A stretch of 64,000 nucleotides of DNA from Candidatus Microgenomatus sp. GTDB lineage: Bacteria > Patescibacteriota > Minisyncoccia > UBA6257 > GWB1-50-10. The notes below the pieces were generated by a model. It saw nothing but the letters and a program-made list of their open reading frames with translations, was not told the origin of the DNA and made no database searches. This document shows, in pieces, positions 36,606 through 62,470 of the stretch (positions are counted from its first letter, which is position 1; each line of letters starts with the position of its first letter). The stretch covers positions 303,157-367,156 of the forward strand of contig DYGI01000001.1 in assembly GCA_020724805.1 (NCBI GenBank), read 5' to 3'. Both the position numbers and the translations under genes were made by a program.

Positions 36606-36677
36606 GGGCGCATAGTTCAGTGGTAGAACGCCATACTGATAATATGGAGGTCCTAGGTTCGATTCCTAGTGCGCCCA
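36606..36677 (+). tRNA. tRNA-Ile (anticodon GAT)
   Basis: Manual cloverleaf: GGGCGCA acceptor, anticodon loop CUGAUAA, T-loop TTCGATT. Confidence 0.85.
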
Positions 36678-36687
36678 CCGAAGCTTT

Positions 36688-36759
36688 GGGCCGTTAGCTC
36701 AGTGGTAGAGCACTTCATTTGCAATGAAGGGGTCACCGGTTCGAATCCGGTACGGTCCA
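36688..36759 (+). tRNA. tRNA-Ala (anticodon TGC)
   Basis: Manual cloverleaf with the G3:U70 identity pair, anticodon loop UUUGCAA, T-loop TTCGAAT. Confidence 0.85.
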
Positions 36760-36778
36760 CTGTATACAAGAAACAGAA

Positions 36779-45644: not shown

Positions 45645-47132
45645 ATGGACACGCGCATCAAAGAAATTTTGAAGGACCTTGCGGCGCTTGACCCTGCGTT
45701 CAAGGACGAACGCGCGGTGCGTCCGCTCGTGGAGCACCTCTTGGCGCTGGCTCCGCGCGGCGGGATGGACGATTCATTCAAGTCGCGTTTGCGGCGCGAG
45801 CTCATTGCGACCGCTTCGGCGCTTCCCTCGCGCCCAATGTCCGCGGCGCAGTTTTTCGCGTCGTGGGGGAATGTGGTCTATGCGGGCGCGGGCGCGCTCG
45901 CGGTGCTCCTCGTGCTCTTCGGCGTGTTCTACAGCCCGGGGCTTCTCGCTCCCTCGAGCGGCGTGAGCGTGGTAGCGGTTCGTGAGCGCGCGTTCGGCGA
46001 TCTTGCCACCCAAGGCGCTCTCGGCATGGGAGCCTCCGCAATGAAAGGCGGTGCGGAGAGTGCGCCGACGCCTGAAGGCGATATCGCGGTGCGGAGTGTG
46101 GCGCCTTCCATGGCGTTCGGTATGGGAGGCGGCACGGGCGCGGGAGGTCCCATCGATATGCCCTCGCCGCTCATTTATCCGGCGCCCGAGGTTCCGCGTA
46201 TCGATTTCGTATATCGCGGGGCGTTTCCTGAAATCGGGGACACGGTGGACGTGTTGCGGCGCGTGAAGCCCGAGGTGGCGGCGGGAGGCGCGGTCACCAC
46301 GCTTCGGCGTTTCGCGATGGGGCTTTTGGACCTCGGCGAATTTTCCGGTGCGCGCGTGGAATCGTTCGCGCTTTCTGAAAACGAGCCGTATGGTTACACG
46401 GTGTATGTGAATCCGGCGGAAGGTACGGTATCCATCGGCCAGAACTGGCGGCAGTGGCCGCAGTTCATCGATGGTCCCACGATGGGGGAAGGCATGGCGC
46501 TTCCGCCCGATGCGGAGCTCATCGCGCTTGCCGATGCATTTTTGGATGAATACGACATCGACCGGAACGGATATGGTGACCCGGTGGTTCAGAAGGCGTG
46601 GAGTATGGACCCTCTTGCGCTCGAGAAGTCCATCATGCCGGCATACGTTCAGGAAGTGCCTATCATTTACCCGTATCTTGTGAACGGCGAACCCATCTTT
46701 GACGAAGGCGGGAATCCCACCGGACTTTATGTCGGTGTGAATGTGAAAGAAAAGCGCGTGTCGAACGTGTCGGGCCTCATGACGCGTCGATACGAATCGT
46801 CCGCGTACGCGGCGGAGCGCGACGTTGAGCGGCTCTTGGGATACGCGGAAGGCCGCTATTGGTATGGTGAGGGCGCGCGCACGGTTACGGTGGAGGTGGA
46901 TGCGCCGACCAAGGGGTATGTGACGACGTGGACGTGGAATGGGAGCGAAGGGTCGGAAGTGGTGGTGCCCGCGCTCATTTTCCCGATACCGGAAAATCTC
47001 AATATTCCCAATATGTATTTCCCGAAAAACCTGGTGGTGCCGCTTGCAAAGGAACTTATCGACCGAAATATGGGTGGCCCTATCCGCATCATGTCCGACT
47101 CGATAGAAGTGATGTCTCCGCCGAGCCAATAG
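45645..47132 (+). CDS. Putative anti-sigma factor (cytoplasmic N-terminal domain, one TM helix, large extracytoplasmic domain)
   Basis: Immediately downstream of the ECF sigma gene; topology typical of anti-sigma factors; no recognised catalytic motif. Confidence 0.45.
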   Translation: MDTRIKEILKDLAALDPAFKDERAVRPLVEHLLALAPRGGMDDSFKSRLRRELIATASALPSRPMSAAQFFASWGNVVYAGAGALAVLLVLFGVFYSPGLLAPSSGVSVVAVRERAFGDLATQGALGMGASAMKGGAESAPTPEGDIAVRSVAPSMAFGMGGGTGAGGPIDMPSPLIYPAPEVPRIDFVYRGAFPEIGDTVDVLRRVKPEVAAGGAVTTLRRFAMGLLDLGEFSGARVESFALSENEPYGYTVYVNPAEGTVSIGQNWRQWPQFIDGPTMGEGMALPPDAELIALADAFLDEYDIDRNGYGDPVVQKAWSMDPLALEKSIMPAYVQEVPIIYPYLVNGEPIFDEGGNPTGLYVGVNVKEKRVSNVSGLMTRRYESSAYAAERDVERLLGYAEGRYWYGEGARTVTVEVDAPTKGYVTTWTWNGSEGSEVVVPALIFPIPENLNIPNMYFPKNLVVPLAKELIDRNMGGPIRIMSDSIEVMSPPSQ

Positions 47133-47146
47133 CGAAATGACCGCAG

Positions 47147-47177
47147 AAAACCCGCCTCGCAGGCGGGTTTTTGTTTT
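47147..47177 (+). terminator. Rho-independent terminator
   Basis: cccgcct-cgc-aggcggg followed by tttttgtttt. Confidence 0.8.
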
Positions 47178-47187
47178 ACCCCACACA

Positions 47188-47217
47188 TTGACAAATGCCC
47201 ATATTTAGTGCTATAAT
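47188..47217 (+). promoter_or_regulatory. Sigma-70 consensus promoter TTGACA-18-TATAAT
   Basis: Exact hexamers at 47188-47193 and 47212-47217; drives the gene at 47261. Confidence 0.6.
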
Positions 47218-47260
47218 GAGAGCAGAATAATTCCCAACCCTCACTTCACTGGAGGTTCTC

Positions 47261-47905
47261 GTGTACGAACTTATGGTCTTTGCGACCGCGGCGCTTATGA
47301 CGCTCGCGGCAGTGGACTATGTACGCCGTGCGTGGAAGCGGGAAACAAACCCGGTGCCGGCAACGTGGATTCTCATGATGGTCATGATGAGCCTTTCGTT
47401 CTGGATGTACTGGGTAAGTCCTCAGAAGTCATGGACCGGCAATATCGGCGTCACGGCAGGGATTTTGAACATCATCATCATTCTTGTCGGCGTACTTGCA
47501 GTGAAGATGCGTGACCACGTGCTTCATGTGGCCTTTGATAAGGTTCAGAAGTGGTGCCTGGCGTTCGGCGGTGCGGTGGTGGTGTTCTGGTTTTTAACCA
47601 AAGCCCCGCTCATTGCGTATACGCTCGTCCAGTGCATCGCACTTATCGCATACTTCGCTACGGTGAAGCGCCTATGGAACGCCGAGCGAAGCACTGAGCC
47701 TTATTTCATATGGGCCGCGGTGCTCTGCGCGAATCTCTGTGCACTCTATCCCGCGTGGGTGAGGAGTGATACGTTCGCATGGATTTATCTCTCGCGGGCG
47801 ATTCCTTCCACCATCTTCATGATCTTTCTCATTGCGCGGGTTAAGCGGCGTGTCGCGCGTGTGGAATTTGCTTCCGCGCAGATGTTTGAACGGGCCTCGT
47901 CGTAG
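47261..47905 (+). CDS. Hypothetical polytopic membrane protein (GTG start)
   Basis: RBS ggagg, then GTG; about 6 TM helices. Confidence 0.5.
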   Translation: MYELMVFATAALMTLAAVDYVRRAWKRETNPVPATWILMMVMMSLSFWMYWVSPQKSWTGNIGVTAGILNIIIILVGVLAVKMRDHVLHVAFDKVQKWCLAFGGAVVVFWFLTKAPLIAYTLVQCIALIAYFATVKRLWNAERSTEPYFIWAAVLCANLCALYPAWVRSDTFAWIYLSRAIPSTIFMIFLIARVKRRVARVEFASAQMFERASS

Positions 47906-48048
47906 TGCGGGTTGGTATCATCAGCGTCCGGTTTTCCGAAAGGGGAACCGGCGCTTTCTTTTTGGTTTTCATTGACTTTTCCTTGTGTAAATTGTATTCT
48001 ATACCGCAGACAATTTGTCACACTAAATAACTCATAAGGAGAAGAAAC

Positions 48049-48819
48049 ATGAAAAAGACTACGAAAGAAGCGTTTGCCGACCTGGCAAACCGCTACACGC
48101 GTATGTCGAACGAAGAGAAAGTGAAGGTTCGTGATGCGCTCACCGCATTCACCGGCGTAAGCCGCGACGCGGTGCGTGACTGGTTTGCGAACCGTCATTT
48201 TCCAGTCGGCGTGCCGTTCATCAAGTTGCGCCATGCGCTCATCGGACTTGGATATCGCATCCAGACGTTCGAGGAGATGCCTGAGGCGCTCCGGTATATG
48301 AGCACACTCGTCGCCCACGACGTGGTGAAGGTCAAGGACACGTATTCGAAAATCGGTTATCCGACGACGGATGCGTTCATCCGGCCACTCACCGAAGGTG
48401 TCAAAGCTCCGGTGCCGCTTCCCGAAAGGATGCGGCGTATCGAAGCATTGTGCGGCGGGTACCGGAAGGAACTCGAAGCGGCGTGGAGTTTGGAGACGGA
48501 GCACTGGAAGTTGAACGGGGAGACGCGGTATTCCAAGCCGGCAGTTTCCCACGCTTCCGCGACGGGAGAAGAAACGGTGGGCTTGCTCGAAGTATTGAGC
48601 GGCGCCCACGCGCTTGCGACCGTCGGCATTCCGCTTCTCGAGAAATTGCTTTCGGAAGAGACGGGAGTGGAGGGACGGAGAGAATTCCGTGATGCCTTTG
48701 GGGTGGAGAAGCTTTTTAGGTTCTCCAACCTGCAGTATCGATTTACAAAGCTCTTGAACGCGGTACGCAGCGAGAAAGCGAAAGAGCTTTTCGAACAAGA
48801 ATTTTCCTCTATCACCTAA
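48049..48819 (+). CDS. Hypothetical protein with a possible N-terminal HTH (partner of the GHKL ATPase)
   Basis: RBS aaggaga; N-terminal segment GVSRDAVRDWFANRHF is HTH-like; no other recognisable motif. Confidence 0.5.
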   Translation: MKKTTKEAFADLANRYTRMSNEEKVKVRDALTAFTGVSRDAVRDWFANRHFPVGVPFIKLRHALIGLGYRIQTFEEMPEALRYMSTLVAHDVVKVKDTYSKIGYPTTDAFIRPLTEGVKAPVPLPERMRRIEALCGGYRKELEAAWSLETEHWKLNGETRYSKPAVSHASATGEETVGLLEVLSGAHALATVGIPLLEKLLSEETGVEGRREFRDAFGVEKLFRFSNLQYRFTKLLNAVRSEKAKELFEQEFSSIT

Positions 48820-48846
48820 CCCCCATTTCTCTGAAAGGATTTCTCC

Positions 48847-50520
48847 ATGAACAAATCAAAACTCGCCTTCCATGAAGGGAAGGCGCTCATTCGGCTTGCA
48901 GAGAAGTATCCCACGCTCCTCGCTGTCATTCTCGAAAGCATCCAGAACGCTATCGACACGCTCGCCAGCACCGTCTGGGTAACCGTGAATCTGCATCGCA
49001 GTACGGTAACGGTTCGCGACGACGGCACGGGAGCGACCAAAGACTACTTCGAAAAGGCGCTCCTCTCGGTCTGCCACAGCATCAAGACGGACGATAAGAT
49101 GGGGCGTTGGGGCCTAGGGCTCATCAGCCCGCTTGGGAAGTGCGACATGTTTACATTCACTTCCACCAAGCGTGGCACGGTGGGGCCATACCTTCGCTGG
49201 ACGTTCGATACCGAAAAACTCGAGCGGCAATCCAAGATCGACGGGATCCCGTTTGAGGAAGTGAACGATGTCGTATTCATGCCGTCAGGTTCCACTCCGC
49301 CCTTCAGAAAGCAGACAGTGCCATGGCGGACGGAAGTGGCGATGCGTGGCGTGACGAAGGATCGGCTCATCGGCAAAGTGGAGCTCTCTGAGCTTCGCGA
49401 CACCATCCTCGAGCGGTTCTCTGAAGCGATGCGCAAGCGGGGGACCATGATCGTGCTTACGGTGGTGTCCCGCACGAAGGAACGGGCGCAGGAAGAGATC
49501 GTGGCGCTCCAGTTCGATGGCAAGCGGCTTCCCGTGGTTCGGTATGAAGGAAAGGACTGCGGGGGAACGACCTTCGAGTTGTACCTCGCGCGGAAGAAGT
49601 CTCGCGGACGTACGGGCAAGGTGTCGGTCGGTATTCGTCACAACGACTATCGTGTCGGCATCCGTGATTTCGCCCGTTCCGCGACAGGGCTTCTCGCGCC
49701 CGAAGTGGTCGACGCGCTGACCTCAGGTGTGTTCGAGGGATACATCATCTCGCAGAAATGCGAGTTGAACTCGGACCGGAAGGGATTTGTGCAGAACGAC
49801 TCGCTTCTCGACTTTTGTCTCCACCTCGAACGGTGGGTGCAGGAAGTCGGCCTGAAGCATCTTCAGGATCTCGACGACATGCGGCGTGACGAACGGTTCC
49901 AGGTCTTGGGCCTGAAGTCGCTCTCGATCATCGAGGATATGCTGAAGAGCCCCGGGTTTGAGCACCTCATGAAGGTCATCAAGGGGTTTCGCTATGGTAC
50001 GATCGGCGCGGGTCATTTCCCGAAGGGTCGGGTCGTGGAGACGCAGGAAAGACCCTCGGTGGCCATTCAAGGGAGCGGGACGAAGTCGGGGAAGGGTTCG
50101 AGCGGGACAACCGCGAGCACCCCTCCGAAGACGGATCATCCGGAGCACAGCCCCGGTTCGGTGTTGGGGACGCTTGGGCGCCGCCGAAAGGTAGTGCGGG
50201 GGCACAGCACCGGATTGCAGTTCTCGTACGACGAGATGCCGGGGCAAAGCGTGTTGTGGCAGTTCGACGTCACGTACGGCGTCCTCCACTTCAATACCGG
50301 CCATCCGCTCTGGGAGAAAGCGGAGCGAAAAAGCGACCGCGTGCTCATGCGGTTTCAAGAGCACATTGCGGTGAAAGCGCTCACGCTCGCCACCATTCCG
50401 CCGGAATGGACGGAAGTAGCGGAGAAGTTCGTCTACGAAGAACTTCCCGCAGTGCTCCATCTTCTCCTGAACGAACGGCCGACGGCGCGCAAGAAAAACG
50501 CCGTAGCCGCAGCGGCATAG
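48847..50520 (+). CDS. GHKL (Bergerat-fold, MORC/Hsp90/MutL-like) ATPase-domain protein with an uncharacterised C-terminal region
   Basis: N box ILESIQNAIDT, G1 box RDDGTG, G2 box GRWGLGL in the first 110 aa; 557 aa. Confidence 0.65.
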   Translation: MNKSKLAFHEGKALIRLAEKYPTLLAVILESIQNAIDTLASTVWVTVNLHRSTVTVRDDGTGATKDYFEKALLSVCHSIKTDDKMGRWGLGLISPLGKCDMFTFTSTKRGTVGPYLRWTFDTEKLERQSKIDGIPFEEVNDVVFMPSGSTPPFRKQTVPWRTEVAMRGVTKDRLIGKVELSELRDTILERFSEAMRKRGTMIVLTVVSRTKERAQEEIVALQFDGKRLPVVRYEGKDCGGTTFELYLARKKSRGRTGKVSVGIRHNDYRVGIRDFARSATGLLAPEVVDALTSGVFEGYIISQKCELNSDRKGFVQNDSLLDFCLHLERWVQEVGLKHLQDLDDMRRDERFQVLGLKSLSIIEDMLKSPGFEHLMKVIKGFRYGTIGAGHFPKGRVVETQERPSVAIQGSGTKSGKGSSGTTASTPPKTDHPEHSPGSVLGTLGRRRKVVRGHSTGLQFSYDEMPGQSVLWQFDVTYGVLHFNTGHPLWEKAERKSDRVLMRFQEHIAVKALTLATIPPEWTEVAEKFVYEELPAVLHLLLNERPTARKKNAVAAAA

Positions 50521-52271: not shown

Positions 52272-52282
52272 ACAACAAAGTC

Positions 52283-52310
52283 CCGCCTCAAGGCGGGTTT
52301 TTGAGTGTGT
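52283..52310 (+). terminator. Rho-independent terminator
   Basis: cccgcct-caa-ggcggg followed by tttttg. Confidence 0.75.
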
Positions 52311-52322
52311 TAAGATTAGGAC

Positions 52323-53222
52323 ATGGTAAATAAGGTTTATTTTGGAGACAACCTTGCGCTGTTAAAATCGTTACCCACGAGATCGGTGCGGCTGATTTAT
52401 ATTGATCCGCCGTTCAACACCGGAAAAGTACAGAAACGGAAACAGCTCAAGACGATCCGCGCGGCCGACGGAGATCGTGTAGGTTTTAAAGGGCAACGTT
52501 ATCAAACGACCGTAGTGGGGGAAAAGGGATACGCTGATGTTTTCGATGACTATCTCGGCTTTCTTGAGCCACGACTCCGAGAAACTCGTCGTGTGCTCAC
52601 CGATGATGGGAGTTTGTATTTTCACATCGATTATCGGGAAGTGCATTATTGTAAGATTCTACTTGATCAGATATTTGGCCGCGAATCGTTTTTGAACGAG
52701 ATCATATGGGCGTATGACTACGGCGCACGCACAAAAAAGAAATGGCCCGCAAAACATGACAATATCTTGTGGTATGCGAAGGATCCGGAACGTTACATCT
52801 TCAACTACGAGGAAATTGAACGAATACCTTACATGGCGCCCGGGCTCGTGGGTCCCGAGAAAGCTAAACGGGGGAAAACGCCTACCGATACGTGGTGGAA
52901 CACCATCGTGAGTCCGAACGGAAAGGAAAAAACCGGATACCCTACACAGAAACCGCTCAGTATTATACGACGCATTGTTCTAGCGTCGTCGAATCCCGGC
53001 GATATGGTGATGGACTTTTTTGCTGGAAGCGGAACTCTTGGCGAGGCCGCGCTTGAACTCGGAAGAAATTTTATTTTAGCAGACAGCAATCCCGAAGCGA
53101 TCGAAGTAATGAAGAAACGATTACTCAAGTATCCTAATGTGGCATTTGAAACGTTAGAGAAAGATGCAGATGCCCAACCTTTGAAGCTTGTTTCGGAACA
53201 AAAAGTTCACACTTTACTGTGA
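52323..53222 (+). CDS. Site-specific DNA methyltransferase (N6-adenine/N4-cytosine class)
   Basis: Catalytic DPPF (IYIDPPFNTG) and an AdoMet-binding motif; lower GC than the flanking DNA. Confidence 0.85.
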   Translation: MVNKVYFGDNLALLKSLPTRSVRLIYIDPPFNTGKVQKRKQLKTIRAADGDRVGFKGQRYQTTVVGEKGYADVFDDYLGFLEPRLRETRRVLTDDGSLYFHIDYREVHYCKILLDQIFGRESFLNEIIWAYDYGARTKKKWPAKHDNILWYAKDPERYIFNYEEIERIPYMAPGLVGPEKAKRGKTPTDTWWNTIVSPNGKEKTGYPTQKPLSIIRRIVLASSNPGDMVMDFFAGSGTLGEAALELGRNFILADSNPEAIEVMKKRLLKYPNVAFETLEKDADAQPLKLVSEQKVHTLL

Positions 53223-53755
53223 AGCGTAAGGTTACCAATCACGATGTTGGAATGCTTGCGAGCATCGCGCAGAGCCTCCGCGCTGACTATGTGAGCAATG
53301 ATGCGGCATGGGAAGGCAGCCCATTTGCATGGATTAGAACGCGTCCATCACGTCAGAAAGGCAAGATTGGGGAACAGCTCGTTGCCGGATGGTGCGCAGC
53401 AAAAAGTTTGAACGTGGAACGAAGCCCTGATAGTGACGCAGATCGTGTTATTGAGGGGAAAAGAGTTGAGATAAAACTTTCAACGCTTTGGGAAAGTGGA
53501 ATTTATAAATTTCAACAGCTCCGTGATCAGAATTATGAATACCTTATTTGTCTCGGTATCTCTCCTTTTGATGCGCGCGCCTGGGTTTTCAAGAAGAGCG
53601 AAATACCATTTGATCGCTTAGACCATCAACATGGAGGATCACGCGGAAGAGATACTTGGTGGATAGAAGCAGATCCAAATCGCCCTCCAAGGTGGATGAT
53701 GCGTGATCAGCGCGGGAAATTATCCGATGTGTATCGAATTTTGAAAAGCAGATAG
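53219..53755 (+). CDS. Putative type II restriction endonuclease (PD-(D/E)xK fold), translationally coupled to the MTase
   Basis: 4-nt overlap with the MTase gene; motif SDADRVIEGKRVEIK (D...E-x-K). Confidence 0.5.
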   Translation: MKRKVTNHDVGMLASIAQSLRADYVSNDAAWEGSPFAWIRTRPSRQKGKIGEQLVAGWCAAKSLNVERSPDSDADRVIEGKRVEIKLSTLWESGIYKFQQLRDQNYEYLICLGISPFDARAWVFKKSEIPFDRLDHQHGGSRGRDTWWIEADPNRPPRWMMRDQRGKLSDVYRILKSR

Positions 53756-53870
53756 CATGGCTCGTTGAAGGTTTTCCGGAATCACGGTATAATAAGAAAA
53801 AAGTAGGGGACCAGCGTCCCGACCTGAAAGCCGTTTGACTTCCATGCCGGGCCAACCCGGATTTTTAATT

Positions 53871-54215
53871 ATGGATCAGGAACTGCAGAAGAAAATTCTA
53901 GAGGTTATAAAAAAGAACGGCGGCCAAGCTTCCGTTGGATATTTGGGTGTAGCAGTTGGTTCGAAAGTTTTGTCTGGCGAAAAGACCGGAATAGATAAGT
54001 GGAAACATAATCTACATCTCTTAATCGACTCTAATAAAATCAAAGAAATCGGAGAAGGTTTACGACCCACTTCATCGGTGAGAATTACCGAGGAGGGAGA
54101 AAGTTTTCTTAAGGGTGAGAGTAATGATGGGGATATTCTAAAGCTGTCTCCGGAGTTTTATGGTGTCGGAATAAACCTCAAATCTCTTTGGAGAAAGATT
54201 AAGTCATGGTTCTAG
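53871..54215 (+). CDS. Hypothetical protein, possibly winged-helix
   Basis: LQKKILEVIKKNGGQASVGYLGVAVGS resembles a wHTH. Confidence 0.4.
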   Translation: MDQELQKKILEVIKKNGGQASVGYLGVAVGSKVLSGEKTGIDKWKHNLHLLIDSNKIKEIGEGLRPTSSVRITEEGESFLKGESNDGDILKLSPEFYGVGINLKSLWRKIKSWF

Positions 54216-54279
54216 CTTCCCATCTAAAGTAGTTCTCAGAACTATGAACACCTACGCCGAAGCGATGTTAATTTAAGTT

Positions 54280-54591
54280 ATGGATTACAAAAGCAAAACA
54301 GATGAGGAAATAGTGGAAATTGCAAAAGAGGGAATTATACGATCACCGCAGGGCGCGCAAGCCGAAATGATGCGTCGGCTTAAAGATTCTATCGTGAAAT
54401 TAGATATCAGCACCTCTCGTTATAACCGCATGTTAGTGAGACTAACCTATTTTCTTTTAGTTATAGCAATTTTTCAGTTGTGGTATTACGCATTCGATGG
54501 GCGTCTCAATTCATTGACAGCGCTCGCCGGCTTACTAGCGATCCTTCCAATTCTTATTGTTTATAGACGAGAAATTGCTCGCTTGAAATAA
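54280..54591 (+). CDS. Hypothetical small membrane protein (two C-terminal TM helices)
   Basis: Preceded by a conserved 35-nt upstream element shared with the gene at 54632. Confidence 0.45.
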   Translation: MDYKSKTDEEIVEIAKEGIIRSPQGAQAEMMRRLKDSIVKLDISTSRYNRMLVRLTYFLLVIAIFQLWYYAFDGRLNSLTALAGLLAILPILIVYRREIARLK

Positions 54592-54631
54592 AAAATGACC
54601 ACCTACACCGGATCGATGTTTAAATAAATCT

Positions 54632-54991
54632 ATGGCCTGGCACCATTATTTTAAAAAGTTTTACAGAAAGAAGATTGGTCAGACGCCTCACTCCCGACGC
54701 CTATGGGCCGCTCTTAAAGAGCGTGGAATAGATTCCGAAACCGAGTATTTCGATGGTCACAAGCATGTTGATATCGCCATTCGTAGTGCTCGTATCTATA
54801 TTGAGGTAGATGGTATCCAGCATTTTACTAACCCAGAGCAAATCATGAGAGATTTCAAGCGGAGCCATTATTCTGATGGTGACGACTTTAGCACTTTCTA
54901 CGTAACCAACCAGATCATTGAAACGCACTTGAACGAAGTTGCAGACGCTATCGCTAAAGTTGTGGAAATGAAACTTAACCCCTCCCCATGA
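54632..54991 (+). CDS. DUF559-family (Vsr/MutH-like endonuclease fold) protein
   Basis: HVDIAIRSARIYIEVDGIQHFTNPEQIMRD...GDDFSTFYVTNQI matches the DUF559 pattern (VDF...IELDGxQH...PEQ...D). Confidence 0.6.
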   Translation: MAWHHYFKKFYRKKIGQTPHSRRLWAALKERGIDSETEYFDGHKHVDIAIRSARIYIEVDGIQHFTNPEQIMRDFKRSHYSDGDDFSTFYVTNQIIETHLNEVADAIAKVVEMKLNPSP

Positions 54992-55033
54992 CCCTCCAAA
55001 ATCTTTCATTACTCGTAATGGCCATCGCGGTGG
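54983..55033. repeat. 51-nt perfect direct repeat, copy 1 (covers the start of the gene at 54988)
   Basis: TCCCCATGACCCTCCAAAATCTTTCATTACTCGTAATGGCCATCGCGGTGG, identical to 56821..56871. Confidence 0.95.
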
Positions 55034-55740
55034 CGATATTGATTTTCGCGGCCGTGGGGCTCTACCCCGGGAGCTTTATGGTGCTACGGATAGTGACTTT
55101 CCTCGCGGCCGCGGCGTTTGCAAACCTTGCGTACCGGAGCAAGCAAATCCCGTGGCTATGCGTATTTGTGGCAATAGCGGTGGTGTTTAACCCGTTTATT
55201 CCTTTTGCCCTGAACGACGCGACCCTATGGCGCGTGATAGACGCGGCGGTGGTGCTCATTTTCGGATTTTTCTTCTGGCGCTACTACGACCGGTACGGCA
55301 AGGGGCATCGGTTCGAGGAATATGTGGCCGCGCTTTTTCCCGCGCACCACTGGGTGGTGGTGGACCGGACGCGGGATTTTTCAAAAACACTCGGGCGGTT
55401 TGTGGAGTCGGACACCAATCCCGACTTTATGTTTCGCGACGTGAAGACCGGAAAATCGTTTGCGGTGGAGTGCAAGTTCAGATCGTATCTCTACAAAGGC
55501 GGCATTTCGTGGGATAGGCAGAGAGGGGAACGGTACCATGCGTATGGCGTGAAGCACAGCGTGCCGGTGTTCATCGCAATCGGGCTTGGTGGGAGCCCCA
55601 AGAAGCCCGAGCGGCTGTTTATGTGCCCTTTGGAAAAACTGAACAACTTTGCGAACCCCGTGGTGCCGATGGAGGAGTTTGTCCGCTACGAGCGCGACCC
55701 GAAAAGGCAGTTCGTTTCGATTGAGGAGATTATAGGATAG
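54988..55740 (+). CDS. Membrane-anchored PD-(D/E)xK nuclease-fold protein (3-4 TM helices plus a C-terminal nuclease-like domain)
   Basis: C-terminal NPDFMFRDVKTGKSFAVECKFRS (PD...ExK); paralogous to the gene at 56342. Confidence 0.55.
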   Translation: MTLQNLSLLVMAIAVAILIFAAVGLYPGSFMVLRIVTFLAAAAFANLAYRSKQIPWLCVFVAIAVVFNPFIPFALNDATLWRVIDAAVVLIFGFFFWRYYDRYGKGHRFEEYVAALFPAHHWVVVDRTRDFSKTLGRFVESDTNPDFMFRDVKTGKSFAVECKFRSYLYKGGISWDRQRGERYHAYGVKHSVPVFIAIGLGGSPKKPERLFMCPLEKLNNFANPVVPMEEFVRYERDPKRQFVSIEEIIG

Positions 55741-55779
55741 CTTCCCACTGACCTACCCCAATTGGGGTAGAATGGAGAT

Positions 55780-56313
55780 ATGAAAATAGCGGTAGGGACC
55801 GTTTCGGAACAAAAAATAGGATATCTACGTGAAATTCTCGCAGAGGTCGGCGTTTCCGCTGAAACTTTTCCAGTTGGTGTATCAAGCGAAATAGCGGAAC
55901 AGCCGTTCACCTCGGATGAGGTAAAGCGGGGTTCGTTGAATCGAGCCCGCCACGCACTGGAAAAAGTTCCCGATGCCGACATATCAATTGGCATCGAGGT
56001 GGGATATGAAAAGGATAAAAACGGGAGTTTTTGGATGTTTTGTTGGGGGACAGCGATCGATAAGGCGGGATTCATAATTTCACACAAATCAAATGAGTTT
56101 CTCCTCCCCGCGTTTTTTCAAAGCGTCCTTCAAGATGGACGATACGTTTCTGATTCTGTGGCTGAATATAAGAGGCAGCAGTCAGACACCGCGGGGCATG
56201 TAATCGCGGACATCGTAACTTACCGCAAGCCCTTCATTGTGGACGCGGTACGAAACGTATTGCTTCGCTACGTAAAGCGTGAGGAATTTGAAAGAAAGCA
56301 TCCTTTCCTATGA
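55780..56313 (+). CDS. YjjX-family non-canonical purine NTP phosphatase (inosine/xanthosine triphosphatase, Maf/Ham1 superfamily)
   Basis: SEIAEQPFTSDEVKRGSLNRARHAL...ISIGIEVG aligns with E. coli YjjX ([26 protein letters not shown]...FWVAIEAG). Confidence 0.75.
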   Translation: MKIAVGTVSEQKIGYLREILAEVGVSAETFPVGVSSEIAEQPFTSDEVKRGSLNRARHALEKVPDADISIGIEVGYEKDKNGSFWMFCWGTAIDKAGFIISHKSNEFLLPAFFQSVLQDGRYVSDSVAEYKRQQSDTAGHVIADIVTYRKPFIVDAVRNVLLRYVKREEFERKHPFL

Positions 56314-56341
56314 GCTCAGCAAATTAGGGTAGAATAGAGGT

Positions 56342-56818
56342 ATGAAAAACCCCATCGACTTCTCGCGAGGGCTTATAAAAGGAAAAATTGCGGAGGTTAT
56401 TTTCGAGCAAATGTTCCGCGAGTCGGGCGAGTTTACTATTCTCCATTTTGGATACGAATATACATCGCAAGAATTGGCCCAATATCGGAAAACCCTTAAA
56501 AAAGAGGTTGTGGAAGATATAAGTAACGCACCTGACTTCGCACTTATTTCACAATCGAAGAAAGAATTGTATTTAGTTGAAGTGAAGTATCGCTCGCAGT
56601 ACAACAGGGATGATTTGAAAGAAATTGCCAGAACTCAACTTAAGCGATGGGACCCATCATGGCTTTTTGTGGCATCTCCAAAAGGATTTTTCTTTTCGCC
56701 TTGTAGCTCAATTGTAAAAAGTGGGGGAGAAATGGAACCTTTGCGCGACACGTGGGTAAATAAAGAATCGCAAAAGGAGTATCTGAAACTACTGAACGAG
56801 TTCATAAAACAGAAATAA
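56342..56818 (+). CDS. Soluble PD-(D/E)xK nuclease-fold protein
   Basis: APDFALISQSKKELYLVEVKYRS (PD...EVK); paralogous to the C-terminal domain of the gene at 54988. Confidence 0.55.
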   Translation: MKNPIDFSRGLIKGKIAEVIFEQMFRESGEFTILHFGYEYTSQELAQYRKTLKKEVVEDISNAPDFALISQSKKELYLVEVKYRSQYNRDDLKEIARTQLKRWDPSWLFVASPKGFFFSPCSSIVKSGGEMEPLRDTWVNKESQKEYLKLLNEFIKQK

Positions 56819-56820
56819 AC

Positions 56821-56871
56821 TCCCCATGACCCTCCAAAATCTTTCATTACTCGTAATGGCCATCGCGGTGG
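56821..56871. repeat. 51-nt perfect direct repeat, copy 2 (encodes a truncated 26-aa duplicate of the N-terminus of the gene at 54988)
   Basis: Exact copy of 54983..55033; the ORF ATGACCCTCC... terminates after 26 codons at 56906. Confidence 0.95.
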
Positions 56872-56892
56872 AAAAGAAACGGCCATCAGTTT

Positions 56893-57147
56893 CTATTGAA
56901 TTCTGATGGCCGCGAGAATGAAGATAATGAGAACGATGAGGGCGACGCCGAAGGGGATAGGATTCTGTGCGATGAAGTGACCAAGCGAGCGGCCCATCCA
57001 TCGTACAAATGTGGCGAGTTGTCGCCCCGTCCACCCTCGGAAGCGATTCGCCTGCGCGGGGCTCACCATATAGATAATCGCGTAGCACGTGAGCCACATC
57101 CCCGTGAGCAGCGCTACCCACTGCATGGAATATTCGAAAAGAGTCAT
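56893..57147 (-). CDS. Hypothetical small membrane protein (84 aa, two TM helices)
   Basis: Divergent from the gene at 57318; a palindromic operator-like site lies between them. Confidence 0.4.
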   Translation of the reverse strand: MTLFEYSMQWVALLTGMWLTCYAIIYMVSPAQANRFRGWTGRQLATFVRWMGRSLGHFIAQNPIPFGVALIVLIIFILAAIRIQ

Positions 57148-57214
57148 AAGGTCCTCTTTTTGGTTTTGAAAGATCGGCGACGCACAACCTATCGTGAATT
57201 GTGTGGATGCATTA

Positions 57215-57231
57215 TAGCATATTATATGCTA
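57215..57231. promoter_or_regulatory. Perfect 17-bp palindrome TAGCATATTATATGCTA in a divergent intergenic region
   Basis: Arms tagcatat/atatgcta; located between the minus-strand gene at 56893..57147 and the plus-strand gene at 57318. Confidence 0.45.
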
Positions 57232-57317
57232 ATATGTCAATATGTGTATATTTAGCGTGGTATCAGTTCTCAGTCAATGCACTTCCAATGTTTGTGGGAT
57301 AAAATGGAGGTGTGAGC

Positions 57318-58073
57318 ATGGAAATGTCCAACACGATGGAGCTTAGACCAGAGAAGGAATCGCTCGGTCCGGAATTCCTCGCCGAGCAGGCCCGGCTTCC
57401 GCGCGAGGAATGGGACGAGCGTTTTCGTATACTCGTCGCGAAGAAGAGCGAGGAAAATCAAAAGGTGATTGCGGAGGGGGTGGAAGAAGGTCCGGAGTCG
57501 CCGGAGGAGCGCGTGTTCCGCCGCTATTGCGACGGGCTTGGGCTCGACGAAGAATCGCTCCACGGAAAGCGCATCGTGGACTTTGGGTGCGGCGAGGAAG
57601 GGGAATTCGTAAAATATTGCATTGAGCACGGAATCACCACGGAAGTCTACGGTGTGGACGCGCAGGTGGACGAGTCTTTGGTGGAAGAGAAATTCAAAAA
57701 ACACCTCGTGAAAGGATATTTTGAAGATGAAGCGCCGGTACGCGATGCGGATTACGTGATTTCCGTGGGGGCGGTATCAAATGAGATATGGGGAGGCGAA
57801 ACGCAGGGGGATATTGAGAAAATACTCGCGCGTGCCGTGGACGCACTGAAAGACGGCGGAGAGATAAGAATGTACCCGATACAGGAAGCCGCCCGCGCGA
57901 CCCCGCTGGAAGGGCTTGCGGCATCACGGGAAAGATGGAAAGAGATACTGGACGCATTTGCCGCGGACCACGGCGTGGAATATCGGCTGGAACCGCGCGA
58001 TATCAAAGTGGCAGGAAACGACAACGACATCATCCTTGAATCGGTGCTTGTGATGAAAAGGAAACATAAATAG
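57318..58073 (+). CDS. Class I SAM-dependent methyltransferase-like protein
   Basis: Motif I IVDFGCGEEG; post-I acidic VYGVD; DYVIS. ATG 57318 is preferred because RBS ggagg sits 7 nt upstream. Confidence 0.55.
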   Translation: MEMSNTMELRPEKESLGPEFLAEQARLPREEWDERFRILVAKKSEENQKVIAEGVEEGPESPEERVFRRYCDGLGLDEESLHGKRIVDFGCGEEGEFVKYCIEHGITTEVYGVDAQVDESLVEEKFKKHLVKGYFEDEAPVRDADYVISVGAVSNEIWGGETQGDIEKILARAVDALKDGGEIRMYPIQEAARATPLEGLAASRERWKEILDAFAADHGVEYRLEPRDIKVAGNDNDIILESVLVMKRKHK

Positions 58074-58123
58074 CTCCTCCCACTGACCCCCGACAGCAGT
58101 AAACAGCTAGACGGGCAGGCTGA

Positions 58124-58165
58124 AACAAAAAGCCGCTCACGCTGTACGAACAACGTGAGCGGTAT
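58124..58165 (-). terminator. Rho-independent terminator (minus strand)
   Basis: ccgctcacg-ctgtacgaacaa-cgtgagcgg preceded on the plus strand by aaacaaaaa. Confidence 0.6.
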
Positions 58166-58182
58166 ACTTATGTGCCGGCGGT

Positions 58183-58404
58183 TCAGGCGGGAGTTGGGGT
58201 GAAATTGGGCGGACCGGAGCAGTTGTCTCCCAGCGCCCTCATGGACTTCTCTTCCCGTCGCCGGCGAATGATGGATTCAATGTCGCTCCCTTTTGCGCAC
58301 ACGAACCCCGCACCTCCCTCCAACGCGAGGAAACTGCAGGTTTCGGATCCTTTTCCCCGCTTGCAGAGCGTTTGCATGCGTGCTTCATCGACCTTGGTGG
58401 CCAT
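58183..58404 (-). CDS. Hypothetical small Cys-containing protein (73 aa)
   Basis: RBS aagggagg 5 nt upstream of the ATG; dedicated terminator downstream. Confidence 0.45.
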   Translation of the reverse strand: MATKVDEARMQTLCKRGKGSETCSFLALEGGAGFVCAKGSDIESIIRRRREEKSMRALGDNCSGPPNFTPTPA

Positions 58405-58470
58405 AGTACCTCCCTTTGCTGGTGAGCGAATACTGACGCCACCTTACCACCGCTCCGCCCCGGGAGTCAA

Positions 58471-58500
58471 TTGACAAATACCACCAATCGGTGGTATTTT
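58471..58500 (+). promoter_or_regulatory. Sigma-70-like promoter TTGACA-18-TATTTT with a 20-bp perfect palindrome (ATACCACCAATCGGTGGTAT) in the spacer
   Basis: TTGACA at 58471-58476, palindrome at 58478-58497, -10 at 58495-58500; a second palindrome gtcaattgac overlaps the -35. Confidence 0.5.
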
Positions 58501-58546
58501 GTTTTCAGCCCTAATTAACTTATTTTCCATTAAAACGGAGGTTTGT

Positions 58547-58912
58547 ATGAACCGCAAAGAATCCATCGGTGAGCGTATTCGCTCCCTTTGGTTTGATGTC
58601 CAACTGCTCATGCTCATCGGCTACATGTTGATCGGCGGGTTCCAGACAATTCGATGGGCCGGTCAGATCGGTGTGAAAGAGCCGCAAACCGCCGCAATCA
58701 CCATCGGGCCGGAAACGGGCCTGGGGCAAGCAATGCCCTTCAGCGACCTTTCACCGGGTACGTACCGCGTGATCGCGCAAGCCGACGACTACACGACCAT
58801 CCTCGCGGCGGTTGTGCCGACGGGGGACATCCCGCTCCTCGTTCGGGACGTGCCCAAGCACCTTCTCAAGAAAGGCACTTTCCGGTATGGGACGTTCCTT
58901 GATTCCGTTTGA
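58547..58912 (+). CDS. Hypothetical protein with an N-terminal TM helix (121 aa)
   Basis: RBS aaacggagg; terminator at 58924..58966. Confidence 0.5.
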   Translation: MNRKESIGERIRSLWFDVQLLMLIGYMLIGGFQTIRWAGQIGVKEPQTAAITIGPETGLGQAMPFSDLSPGTYRVIAQADDYTTILAAVVPTGDIPLLVRDVPKHLLKKGTFRYGTFLDSV

Positions 58913-58923
58913 CGCTTTGCATC

Positions 58924-58966
58924 CGGCGGGTGACGCATTTTCATGCGCCACCCGTTTTTTGTTGGT
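58924..58966 (+). terminator. Rho-independent terminator
   Basis: ggcgggtgacgcat-tttc-atgcgccacccg followed by tttttt. Confidence 0.7.
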
Positions 58967-58984
58967 TTGAAGTAGAATTGATTT

Positions 58985-59431
58985 ATGCAAGGTAATCGAA
59001 CGAAAACGCTCCTCGCGCGGGTGAAAGAGCTGCGGCTGCCCACGGAGCAGTACGTTATTTTCGGGAGCGGACCCATGGTGGTGCGGGGATTACGCGAGTG
59101 CAAGGATATCGACATACTCGTTTCCGAAAGTGTTTTTCGAGAATACAGGGATAAGCCCGGATGGACGACGAAAAAATTCGGTGACGGCTCGGATTATCTG
59201 GAAAACGACGGCATCGAACTTTGGGCCGAATGGGGGCCGGGGGAGTGGAACGAAGCAGCGCTTATTCGCGAAGTGGAAATAATAGACGGGTTGCCGTTCG
59301 TTCCGTTGGAAATGATGCTCAAGTGGAAGAAAATCTGTGGCCGCCCGAAAGACCTCGCGGACGTAAAGACGGTGGAGGAATACCTGAAACGAAATAACCT
59401 CTTCGAGCTCGTCGAGACTGAGTCTTTCTGA
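58985..59431 (+). CDS. Minimal nucleotidyltransferase (Pol-beta-like NTase fold) protein
   Basis: IFGSGPMVVRGLRECKDIDILV matches the hG[GS]x9-13 Dh[DE]h NTase signature. Confidence 0.55.
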   Translation: MQGNRTKTLLARVKELRLPTEQYVIFGSGPMVVRGLRECKDIDILVSESVFREYRDKPGWTTKKFGDGSDYLENDGIELWAEWGPGEWNEAALIREVEIIDGLPFVPLEMMLKWKKICGRPKDLADVKTVEEYLKRNNLFELVETESF

Positions 59432-59506
59432 GACGAATGTCCTGAAGGCTCCTCAGAGCCTGAACGGCCCTCCCACTGATCCGACCGTATAAACAAACGC
59501 CGCTTG

Positions 59507-59686
59507 CTATGAAGCGGCGCCTTCGATGATGCGGGGCTCCTCCATGCCGGGAGCGCAATAATAGAGATGGTCCATCGCGATGCGGGTTTCGGGAATCCAG
59601 AGGCGATGGCAACGCGGACAACGCGTTGGAATTTTCATAAGGTCCCTACCTACGCATTCCGGGCATTGCTCGGGCGTGTCAGACAT
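59507..59686 (-). CDS. Small zinc-ribbon protein (59 aa)
   Basis: RBS aaggaga 5 nt upstream of the ATG; CPEC...CPRC; terminator hairpin plus a T-run downstream. Confidence 0.45.
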   Translation of the reverse strand: MSDTPEQCPECVGRDLMKIPTRCPRCHRLWIPETRIAMDHLYYCAPGMEEPRIIEGAAS

Positions 59687-59839
59687 GGCTATCTCCTTAA
59701 TGGTGGCCTATCAAAAACATGCTATTTTCCCTATTAAAAGTCAATTATCTGAGCCTATAATTTGCCTTCCCTTGGCCTTTCTGTTATTACTGCATTTAGA
59801 GCGTTTTTGACATCATCCAATAACGAAAGGAGTAAGGAT

Positions 59840-60625
59840 ATGAAAACCACACATGCGGTAGAAAGAAACGCGGAAACCCGTATTTCCGCAGATGTTCTCC
59901 CGCTCAGCCATCTTGAATCGGTGGCGCTGGGATTTCTTGCATTGGCAGCAGGAGCCAGCTTCTTCAAGGAGTGGCTCACCGAGCGCCTATCCGAACGCAC
60001 GCTCGCTTTGCCGGACATCATCGAGATTCCCGCATTCGAGCCCGCGCACATCGAATGGATCCCTCCGATCAGCCCTGCAGTAGCCGAGAGGAAGCTCATT
60101 TGGCTGCTGAACGAGATGGAGTATGCTCCGGAGCGTCAGCGGCAGAGGGTCATCAATATCCTGAACCTGTCACATCAGACTCCCATACCGAAGGCCGCTG
60201 CGTGGGGTATCGTCTTTAACGAGACGCTGGGGGTATTCGTCGCGGGTCACCCATTCAGATTCAACACGCTTGTGGACTACTCACAGACTGTAATTGTGGG
60301 TCCCGAGTGGACTCGGTTGAAATCGCACGAGCTCACCAAGTGTGTAAGCAGGGTGAGCCTGATGGCGACGGCGAAGTGTATCGAACACGCCAGCTTCAAG
60401 CTGGAGCGGCTCGAGCCCGAAGTCAGCTCCTGGCTTCTTGAGGGATCAGGTGTGCGGCTGTATGGCGCCGAAAGCGGGCAAAGCTTCAACGATGTTCTGG
60501 CCCGTGTCCGCGAATCCGGTCTGCCGTACGCTTTTCTCTCCGAAAAGGTGGATATGCTGGCACTGCAGCCCTGCATTACCGGCAGTTACGAAACTCTTCT
60601 CGCCGAACTGACCCCAGTCGAGTGA
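59840..60625 (+). CDS. Hypothetical protein (261 aa)
   Basis: RBS aaaggag 7 nt upstream of the ATG; no recognisable motif. Confidence 0.5.
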   Translation: MKTTHAVERNAETRISADVLPLSHLESVALGFLALAAGASFFKEWLTERLSERTLALPDIIEIPAFEPAHIEWIPPISPAVAERKLIWLLNEMEYAPERQRQRVINILNLSHQTPIPKAAAWGIVFNETLGVFVAGHPFRFNTLVDYSQTVIVGPEWTRLKSHELTKCVSRVSLMATAKCIEHASFKLERLEPEVSSWLLEGSGVRLYGAESGQSFNDVLARVRESGLPYAFLSEKVDMLALQPCITGSYETLLAELTPVE

Positions 60626-60701
60626 GTCGAGAAGTGGGAATTTCCGGGTGGTGTACTTTGGTACCCCACCCGTTTTTGTTTAGTTGAGGTAAAATAGAAT
60701 C

Positions 60702-62432: not shown

Positions 62433-62470
62433 TGTACAAAAAACGTTCGTGATTAGGGTAGAATGAAAAT

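Follow-up and report, generated by a model that had tools for sequence, protein, structure and literature searches.

A segment of low GC content at positions 52323-57250 of a 64-kb stretch of Candidatus Microgenomatus sp. DNA (contig DYGI01000001.1, positions 303,157 to 367,156 of the forward strand; this whole stretch is referred to as the window) encodes a type II restriction-modification (R-M) pair and several smaller proteins, some of them putative nucleases. The segment is most probably a strain-specific, horizontally acquired part of a variable defence hotspot, in which two blocks of cargo lie on either side of a native gene. The native gene encodes a 250-residue membrane protein with a predicted nuclease domain. 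A preliminary description, made from the DNA letters and the translated open reading frames (ORFs), had proposed horizontally acquired defence DNA at this position, and that core idea is upheld by the GC content at third codon positions (GC3), the tetranucleotide composition, the absence of the genes from three relatives and the dispersed occurrence of the R-M module. The window has an identical counterpart in the 570-kb JGI metagenome contig Ga0246236_1000004 and matches NCBI DYFJ01000005.1 at 99.99% identity; sequence comparisons indicate that its source, an uncultured organism, is related to Candidatus Jorgensenbacteria (Patescibacteria, Candidate Phyla Radiation (CPR)).

Composition of the segment and its restriction-modification pair

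The mean GC content of the whole window is 0.541. The GC drop that had been seen by eye was recovered when windowed GC was computed, with 0.465 for positions 52323-57250 and 0.548 for the remainder of the window; the core GC of more than 60% that had been assumed was an overestimate, the actual baseline being about 0.55. The segment is the lowest-GC 4.9-kb stretch within the window, the 4.9-kb stretches outside it having a mean GC of 0.547 (standard deviation 0.015) and a minimum of 0.516. Tetranucleotide deviation, which had been suggested as a check, also peaks in the segment, the maximum distance from the window average being z = 5.0 at 53001-55000.

The dip in GC is as it was first described, but the segment is not the single, uniform island that had been envisaged. 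The low-GC DNA is a mosaic of two blocks, block A (52304-54987, GC 0.445) and block B (55741-56819, GC 0.441), since the 250-aa gene that separates them (54988-55740, GC 0.551) has a native-like GC3 of 0.713 compared with 0.39-0.48 for the seven cargo genes. The background GC3 of the window genes is 0.611 +/- 0.074, and the native DUF1428 gene on the left flank has a GC3 of 0.76. The features of the segment, with the GC3 of each gene and the methods by which they were assigned, are as follows.

52282..52303, + strand: terminator-like hairpin (CCCGCCTCAAGGCGGG followed by a T-run) after the DUF1428 gene, at the left edge of block A (terminator scan)
52323..53222, + strand: type II DNA methyltransferase (MTase), beta-class N6_N4, DPPF; GC3 0.48 (Pfam, PADLOC, PDB sequence matches)
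53219..53755, + strand: cognate type II restriction endonuclease (REase), 178 aa, GTG start; GC3 0.41 (PADLOC, AlphaFold 2 (AF2), Foldseek)
53844..54215, + strand: 123-aa soluble protein with no match in Pfam, NCBIfam or PADLOC and no hydrophobic segment; GC3 0.40
54280..54591, + strand: 103-aa protein with two C-terminal hydrophobic segments resembling transmembrane (TM) helices; GC3 0.385, the lowest in the window (hydropathy)
54632..54991, + strand: DUF559 protein (Vsr-like endonuclease fold), 119 aa; GC3 0.47 (Pfam)
54982..55033, + strand: copy 1 of a perfect 52-nt direct repeat, made up of the 10 nt that end the DUF559 gene and, overlapping these, the 46 nt that open the 250-aa ORF
54988..55740, + strand: 250-aa membrane protein with DUF6804 and an Hjc-like PD-(D/E)xK domain (Pfam, AF2, Foldseek, orthologues)
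55780..56313, + strand: DUF84/NTPase_I-T family protein (inosine/xanthosine-triphosphatase-like), hereafter the NTPase; low GC, GC3 0.466 (Pfam)
56342..56818, + strand: 158-aa stand-alone protein with a PD-(D/E)xK signature (E18, P64-D65, E80-x-K82); low GC, GC3 0.43 (motif conservation)
56820..56871, + strand: copy 2 of the direct repeat, an orphan consisting of the 5' end of the 250-aa gene (46 nt of the ORF and the 6 nt before it), with unrelated sequence beyond it
56893..57147, - strand: 84-aa protein with two TM segments and a native composition (GC3 0.69), located at the right-hand margin of the variable DNA; missing from the closest strain, L006

The first two genes of block A are recognisable, by profile matches and structural modelling, as a bona fide type II R-M module, and both had been correctly picked out beforehand. 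The MTase matches Pfam N6_N4_Mtase (2e-51; 175.5 bits against a cutoff of 26.7) and the PADLOC model MTase_II PDLC03300 (E = 4e-144), and the DPPF catalytic motif is present in its translation. The best PDB sequence matches are N6-adenine enzymes (M.RsrI, 4e-31; CcrM; M.MboIIA), while N4-cytosine enzymes reach about 1e-6 at best, and the MTase is probably specific for N6-adenine. The GTG start of the REase gene overlaps the MTase stop by 4 nt, and its product matches PADLOC REase_II PDLC03515 (E = 5.6e-48). Residues E52, D75, E84 and K86 are invariant in the alignment of REase homologues. The AF2 model (pLDDT 89.8) was matched by Foldseek to the PDB structures of Hjc, NhoI, I-Ssp6803I, DpnI, NaeI and EcoRV, which identifies the predicted fold as PD-(D/E)xK. 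By homology, the MTase would methylate host copies of its site and the REase would cut unmethylated incoming DNA.

The pair is found in many other settings. In 72 of 80 metagenomic loci with a REase homologue, an MTase homologue (55-80% identity) lies directly upstream on the same strand; the remaining eight loci have no room upstream, so that all of the testable loci (72/72) are paired. Homologues of the other island genes occur in none of the 80 loci, and the contigs that bear the R-M homologues range in GC from 0.43 to 0.71. On account of the consistent pairing, the lack of other island genes and the spread in contig GC, the two genes appear to be a self-contained and widely travelled module. 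The family is large, with at least 1355 REase homologues, yet is annotated almost wholly as 'hypothetical' or left unnamed. No relative of the REase was found in the PDB by sequence and no match among plasmid sequences; there are weak homologues (37-38% identity) among cyanophage 'hypothetical proteins', as well as a PHROG match. Assigning a name to the REase was abandoned, as it has no PDB sequence relative or plasmid match and its homologues are themselves unnamed.

The module resembles known type II R-M systems with a beta-class N6_N4 MTase, of which M.RsrI, CcrM and M.MboIIA are the nearest, in having the MTase gene followed by a separate, adjoining REase gene on one strand and in the conserved E, D and ExK of the REase. 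It differs from them in that sequence searches detect no solved structure for the REase family, whose members are mostly 'hypothetical', and in that a controller (C) protein is absent at this pair. Among the palindromes of the whole window GATC is the one most strongly depleted (142 observed, 256 expected, z = -7.1), which is a weak and non-specific hint at the recognition site of the pair; under a first-order model the most depleted 6-mer in the window is CGATCG.

The locus in related genomes

Orthologous loci were found in three related genomes (L018, L019 and L020), which have in common with the window the 250-aa gene and the DUF305, NUDIX, HIT and 261-aa genes. No homologues of the low-GC genes of the window were found in any of the three. 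The four loci become homologous at the start codon (ATG) of the 250-aa gene, around which the relatives carry the following genes.

L018 (Candidatus Jorgensenbacteria): AbiEii, RadC, MazG-like, SLFN-type helicase and DUF3800; downstream of the 250-aa orthologue, MTES_1575 and PIF1
L019 (SRR5581857): type I HsdS and HsdR directly upstream of the 250-aa orthologue
L020 (SRR22388331): upstream, RE_BsaWI, a LexA-MTase fusion, GmrSD_N and HEPN; downstream, HTH_5, MazE and Fic

The same neighbourhood in close relatives therefore contains unrelated systems, namely type I and type II R-M, GmrSD, HEPN, abortive infection (Abi) and toxin-antitoxin. Because the relatives share the anchor gene and the right flank and carry other defence genes, the neighbourhood is identified by these comparisons as a variable defence-gene hotspot, in which the low-GC genes of the window would be strain-specific. 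The products of the low-GC genes also sit in tiny 90%-identity clusters. The preliminary description had called for a comparison of synteny with related genomes; the absence of the low-GC genes from the three relatives agrees with acquisition, while the 158-aa gene proved to be present in L006.

In L018 a 352-aa gene overlaps the start of the 250-aa orthologue by ATGA. Repeated palindromic sites resembling CTAATTCG-N-ACGAATTAG adjoin ArsR-type HTH_5 genes in L018 (11751-13220 and 19993-20033) and L020 (5770-6129), and L018 also contains repeated 5' gene fragments (CATGAACTACCACGGCACCATCATCGAAGAAAGC...). Their sequences suggest that the palindromes are operator sites and that the fragments are further scars of rearrangement.

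The N-terminus of the 250-aa protein is a DUF6804 membrane domain (Pfam, 3e-12) with about four TM helices. In the C-terminal domain all of 16 homologous sequences share E110, P145-D146 and E161-C-K163, and the AF2 model of the protein (pLDDT 82) was matched by Foldseek to archaeal Hjc (probability 1.00, TM-score 0.76-0.78) and also to RecU. The conserved residues and the model together assign the C-terminal domain to the PD-(D/E)xK superfamily. It shares the compact core and the invariant E, PD and ExK with Archaeoglobus fulgidus Hjc and bacterial RecU, but identity to these is only 14-23% and the domain is fused to the four-helix DUF6804 domain of about 100 residues; the likeness is at the level of the fold and does not imply junction resolution.

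Orthologues of the 250-aa protein in the three related genomes are 79-86% identical, the one at 79% being that of Candidatus Jorgensenbacteria. Other native genes have similar orthologue identities (DUF305, 75%; NUDIX, 80-85%; 261-aa protein, 77%). Since both its GC3 and its orthologue identities are like those of native genes, the 250-aa gene is native and vertically inherited, and it does not belong to the acquired DNA in which it had been counted at first.

A DUF6804 protein with the Hjc-like domain occurs in sampled Patescibacteria, in Tagabacteria, Doudnabacteria, Kaiserbacteria, Yonathbacteria and Paceibacterota. The nuclease domain without DUF6804 was observed, at 28-43% identity (L038-L057), in archaea (Methanoperedens, Methanosarcinaceae), Bacteroidota, Verrucomicrobiota, Methylococcaceae and Longimicrobium. 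No paper mentioning DUF6804 was found in a literature search, and the membrane-tethered, Hjc-like DUF6804 protein represents an uncharacterised family of predicted nucleases that would be worth testing.

The more distant loci of this family included 17 Patescibacteria loci from GTDB genomes. At 20 loci the commonest neighbour family was N6_N4_Mtase, with four of 116 ORFs, and many of the neighbours are housekeeping genes. The idea that the 250-aa gene marks defence hotspots throughout the Patescibacteria has little support in view of these housekeeping neighbours, and the association with a hotspot is limited to the close clade. A search for synteny by way of the flanking M50 peptidase gene was uninformative. 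Scans of genomes and metagenome contigs with the peptidase found no close relative, the nearest homologues (53-55% identity), which are assigned to 'Patescibacteria group bacterium', lying in a different setting amid L10/L12 and MraZ genes.

Defence hotspots whose cargo varies beside conserved genes are familiar from other bacteria, an example being the hsd-mcr-mrr 'immigration control region' of Escherichia coli. The Patescibacteria have tiny genomes, mostly without CRISPR, and are thought to rely on defences of the R-M type. Genomic islands with R-M genes have been described in this group, and defence functions are enriched among its transferred genes (PMC12455944). The present locus is like the E. 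coli region and the Patescibacteria islands in that differing defence genes occupy the same neighbourhood in relatives, and in that the cargo is of atypical composition and no dedicated integrase is present. Unlike those, the window carries only one recognised system, while the loci of its relatives carry several; the conserved neighbour is a gene for a membrane-anchored nuclease, with cargo abutting its start codon; and the left boundary of the hotspot is undefined in the relatives. The locus is thus a concrete example of a Patescibacteria genome that holds and turns over defence genes without an integrase. It is ordinary in kind, a well-documented instance that leaves current concepts unchanged, and is of modest interest for the Hjc-like, membrane-anchored nuclease gene at the centre of the hotspot and for the 52-nt footprint of turnover described below.

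The 52-nt repeat and the origin of the segment

The two copies of the direct repeat are identical at 52 of 52 positions, lie 1838 nt apart and enclose three genes, those for the 250-aa protein, the NTPase and the 158-aa protein. Homology among the orthologous loci starts at the left edge of the repeat, and copy 2 starts just after the stop codon of the 158-aa gene. The repeat is present in independent assemblies (L003, L005 and L008), and contigs from longer-k assemblies (L003, L005, L008 and L009) read through both of its junctions. Breaks in the Logan assemblies (at about 55004-55011 and at 56849) were considered as strain heterogeneity; this was rejected, as the 52-nt repeat exceeds the k of 31. 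At the place of copy 2, L006 keeps only 'CTCCCCATGACCC'.

The repeat is taken as a footprint of cargo turnover. The block of the NTPase and 158-aa genes may once have immediately preceded a copy of the 250-aa gene, the position at which the relatives keep their cargo. A later rearrangement would have left the orphan fragment, either by a duplication or by block A coming in along with another copy of the gene, followed by deletion. The cargo would be exchanged by recombination without a dedicated integrase, with the conserved anchor gene most likely serving as a homology arm.

The repeat could also be read as the boundary of a discrete mobile cassette of three genes, which would excise and integrate through att-like repeats and might exist as a small circle. 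The perfect repeat encloses exactly the 250-aa, NTPase and 158-aa genes, and a Logan unitig assembled at k = 31 (L010) begins and ends inside the repeat, which would fit a circle or a tandem array no less than a linear form. Such a cassette is nevertheless unlikely. The longer-k contigs run straight through both junctions, no recombinase gene was found in Pfam and NCBIfam searches of the window ORFs, and the 250-aa gene has the native GC3 of 0.71 compared with 0.43-0.47 for the NTPase and 158-aa genes. Moreover, the genes do not travel together: the 250-aa orthologues in the three relatives have neither an NTPase nor a 158-aa neighbour, the best homologue of the 158-aa protein (L138) has neither an NTPase nor a DUF6804 neighbour, and the 157-aa gene of L006 has a different upstream sequence. 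The three-gene cassette of the preliminary description was rejected as a conserved unit on the same grounds, its partner genes being absent at the three related loci and in L138. Two further repeats, D2 and D3, which precede the NTPase and 158-aa genes, were also rejected as cassette boundaries, as they contain a promoter-like motif (GGGTAGAAT) that is found upstream of a native gene and in L018.

It is very unlikely that an integrated phage, plasmid or integrative element left the segment behind as a remnant. Low GC and R-M genes are common as the cargo of mobile elements, and the weak cyanophage homologues and PHROG match of the REase would be in keeping with such an origin. However, Pfam, NCBIfam and PHROG searches found no gene for an integrase, transposase or relaxase, nor any for phage structure or replication, in or next to the segment; no tRNA adjoins it (the nearest are at 36.6 kb), and the 52-nt repeat brackets the native gene and block B, not the island as a whole. 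The lack of a plasmid match for the REase and of a viral-contig match for the 158-aa family argues in the same direction, as does the native gene that splits the low-GC DNA.

Least plausible is low GC without transfer, in which old resident genes of a normal region of the lineage owe their composition to functional or expression constraints; the GGGTAGAAT motif that the NTPase and 158-aa genes share with the native NUDIX gene and the occurrence of the 158-aa gene in L006 would suit it, but every low-GC gene is missing at the orthologous loci of three relatives, the proteins fall into tiny 90%-identity clusters, the R-M pair recurs on its own, as a two-gene module, against many unrelated GC backgrounds, and the tetranucleotide deviation reaches z = 5.

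Several observations weigh against an acquired, strain-specific part of a defence hotspot. The left flank (genes for DUF1428, M50 and MscL) is seen in none of the relatives, which precludes a clean empty-site comparison. The closest strain, L006 (about 87-94% DNA identity), has an orthologue of the 158-aa protein with 93% identity, in the same place relative to a downstream S-adenosylmethionine (SAM)-methyltransferase gene; therefore at least the 158-aa gene predates the split of the two strains. Only the R-M pair has a PADLOC match in the window, so that 'defence', when applied to the whole segment, is guilt by association. The neighbours of the distant members of the 250-aa family are R-M genes mixed with housekeeping genes, and the route by which the 52-nt repeat would have arisen is itself a reconstruction.

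A more specific possibility is that the 250-aa gene or its product defines an integrase-free exchange site, with defence cargo being swapped directly upstream of the start codon of the gene in this clade. This is improbable; if true, it would constitute a new, anchor-gene-directed mode of cargo turnover among very small bacteria that rely on taking up DNA, and the 52-nt orphan would be its footprint.

Other cargo genes and features of the window

The five remaining cargo proteins (123-aa, 103-aa, DUF559, NTPase and 158-aa) have no PADLOC match better than E = 0.01. The nuclease-fold proteins other than the REase might contribute to defence or DNA processing in an accessory way. The preliminary description had counted five nuclease-fold proteins in the segment, of which four are supportable: the REase, the DUF559 protein, the C-terminal domain of the 250-aa protein and, tentatively, the 158-aa protein.

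The DUF559 protein had been recognised as having a Vsr-like fold, and it does score above the gathering threshold of Pfam PF04480 (28.9 bits against 20.6). It also has a match to MTES_1575 (4.5e-4) that is under the cutoff, and it contains a VDIAI...IEVDGIQH motif. Its stop codon is shared in part with the start codon of the 250-aa gene, in the sequence ATGA. The protein resembles the DUF559/Vsr-like proteins of the E. coli YcjD type (PRK09767) in size, in the Pfam match and in the D...E-x-D-G..H motif, but is far under the NCBIfam equivalog cutoff (17.8 against 218). Vsr works with a C5-cytosine MTase, and the DUF559 gene of the window differs from that arrangement in having no linked C5-cytosine MTase.

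The 158-aa protein belongs to a family of 334 cluster representatives. Conservation reaches 90% or more at E18, P64-D65 and V81-K82 in an alignment of 47 sequences, and Glu is the consensus residue at the first position of the ExK. The profile matches are weak (TnsA_N, 1.4e-3; REase_II, 0.01; YraN, 0.06), and hhalign aligned the family with that of the 250-aa protein across the PD..ExK core with a probability of 42% (E = 2.7e-4). No match to the family profile was found among PDB sequences or viral contigs. The protein is tentatively considered to be PD-(D/E)xK nuclease-like, on the basis of these motifs, and the stand-alone family is a second uncharacterised group of putative nucleases that would be worth testing.

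The NTPase scores 65.9 bits with Pfam PF01931, for which the cutoff is 25. It also matches the NCBIfam DUF84/NTPase models (6.7e-21), but all of these score far under their equivalog cutoffs (74.6 against 199), which supports membership of the family only. The GGGTAGAAT motif precedes by 6-8 nt the start codons of the genes for the NTPase, the 158-aa protein and the native NUDIX protein (55765-55773, 56327-56335 and 62456-62464, respectively) and recurs in L018 (17073-20102) and in L006. It is likely to be an extended -10 promoter that is typical of the lineage, with very short leaders.

The 123-aa gene is preceded by a promoter-like site at 53765-53793. The sole match of its product is to PHROG 2440 'transcriptional regulator' (E = 0.024), and the winged helix-turn-helix (wHTH) that had been suggested for it is plausible, though unproven. 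The 103-aa protein has no family match in Pfam, NCBIfam, PADLOC or PHROG searches. Two small membrane proteins had been proposed, and the 103-aa and 84-aa proteins do have two hydrophobic segments each; the second is encoded on the minus strand, and the plus-strand ORF at 56896-57255 (119 aa, TTG start) is probably spurious. The 84-aa gene has a perfect sigma-70-type promoter, TTGACA-18-TATAAT (12/12), at 57240-57211.

Beyond the segment, a second variable spot was observed between positions 58065-60689 of the window and 1339-1898 of L006. There, 2.6 kb with the genes for 73-aa (minus strand), 121-aa, 136/148-aa and 261-aa proteins is replaced in L006 by about 560 nt with a RibD_C-domain protein.

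Elsewhere in the window, genes for tRNA-Ile(GAT) and tRNA-Ala(TGC) lie 8 nt apart at 36606-36760. This pair is normally located in the spacer between the 16S and 23S rRNA genes; no rRNA was found by Rfam in the 64-kb window. At 45645-50520, following a gene for an extracytoplasmic function (ECF)-type sigma factor, there are four genes of native GC encoding proteins of 495 aa, 210 aa, 256 aa (with a weak helix-turn-helix match) and 557 aa, the last with a HATPase_c_3 domain. HATPase_c_3 proteins are often associated with defence (MORC-like), and strain L011 has the same block at 92% DNA identity.

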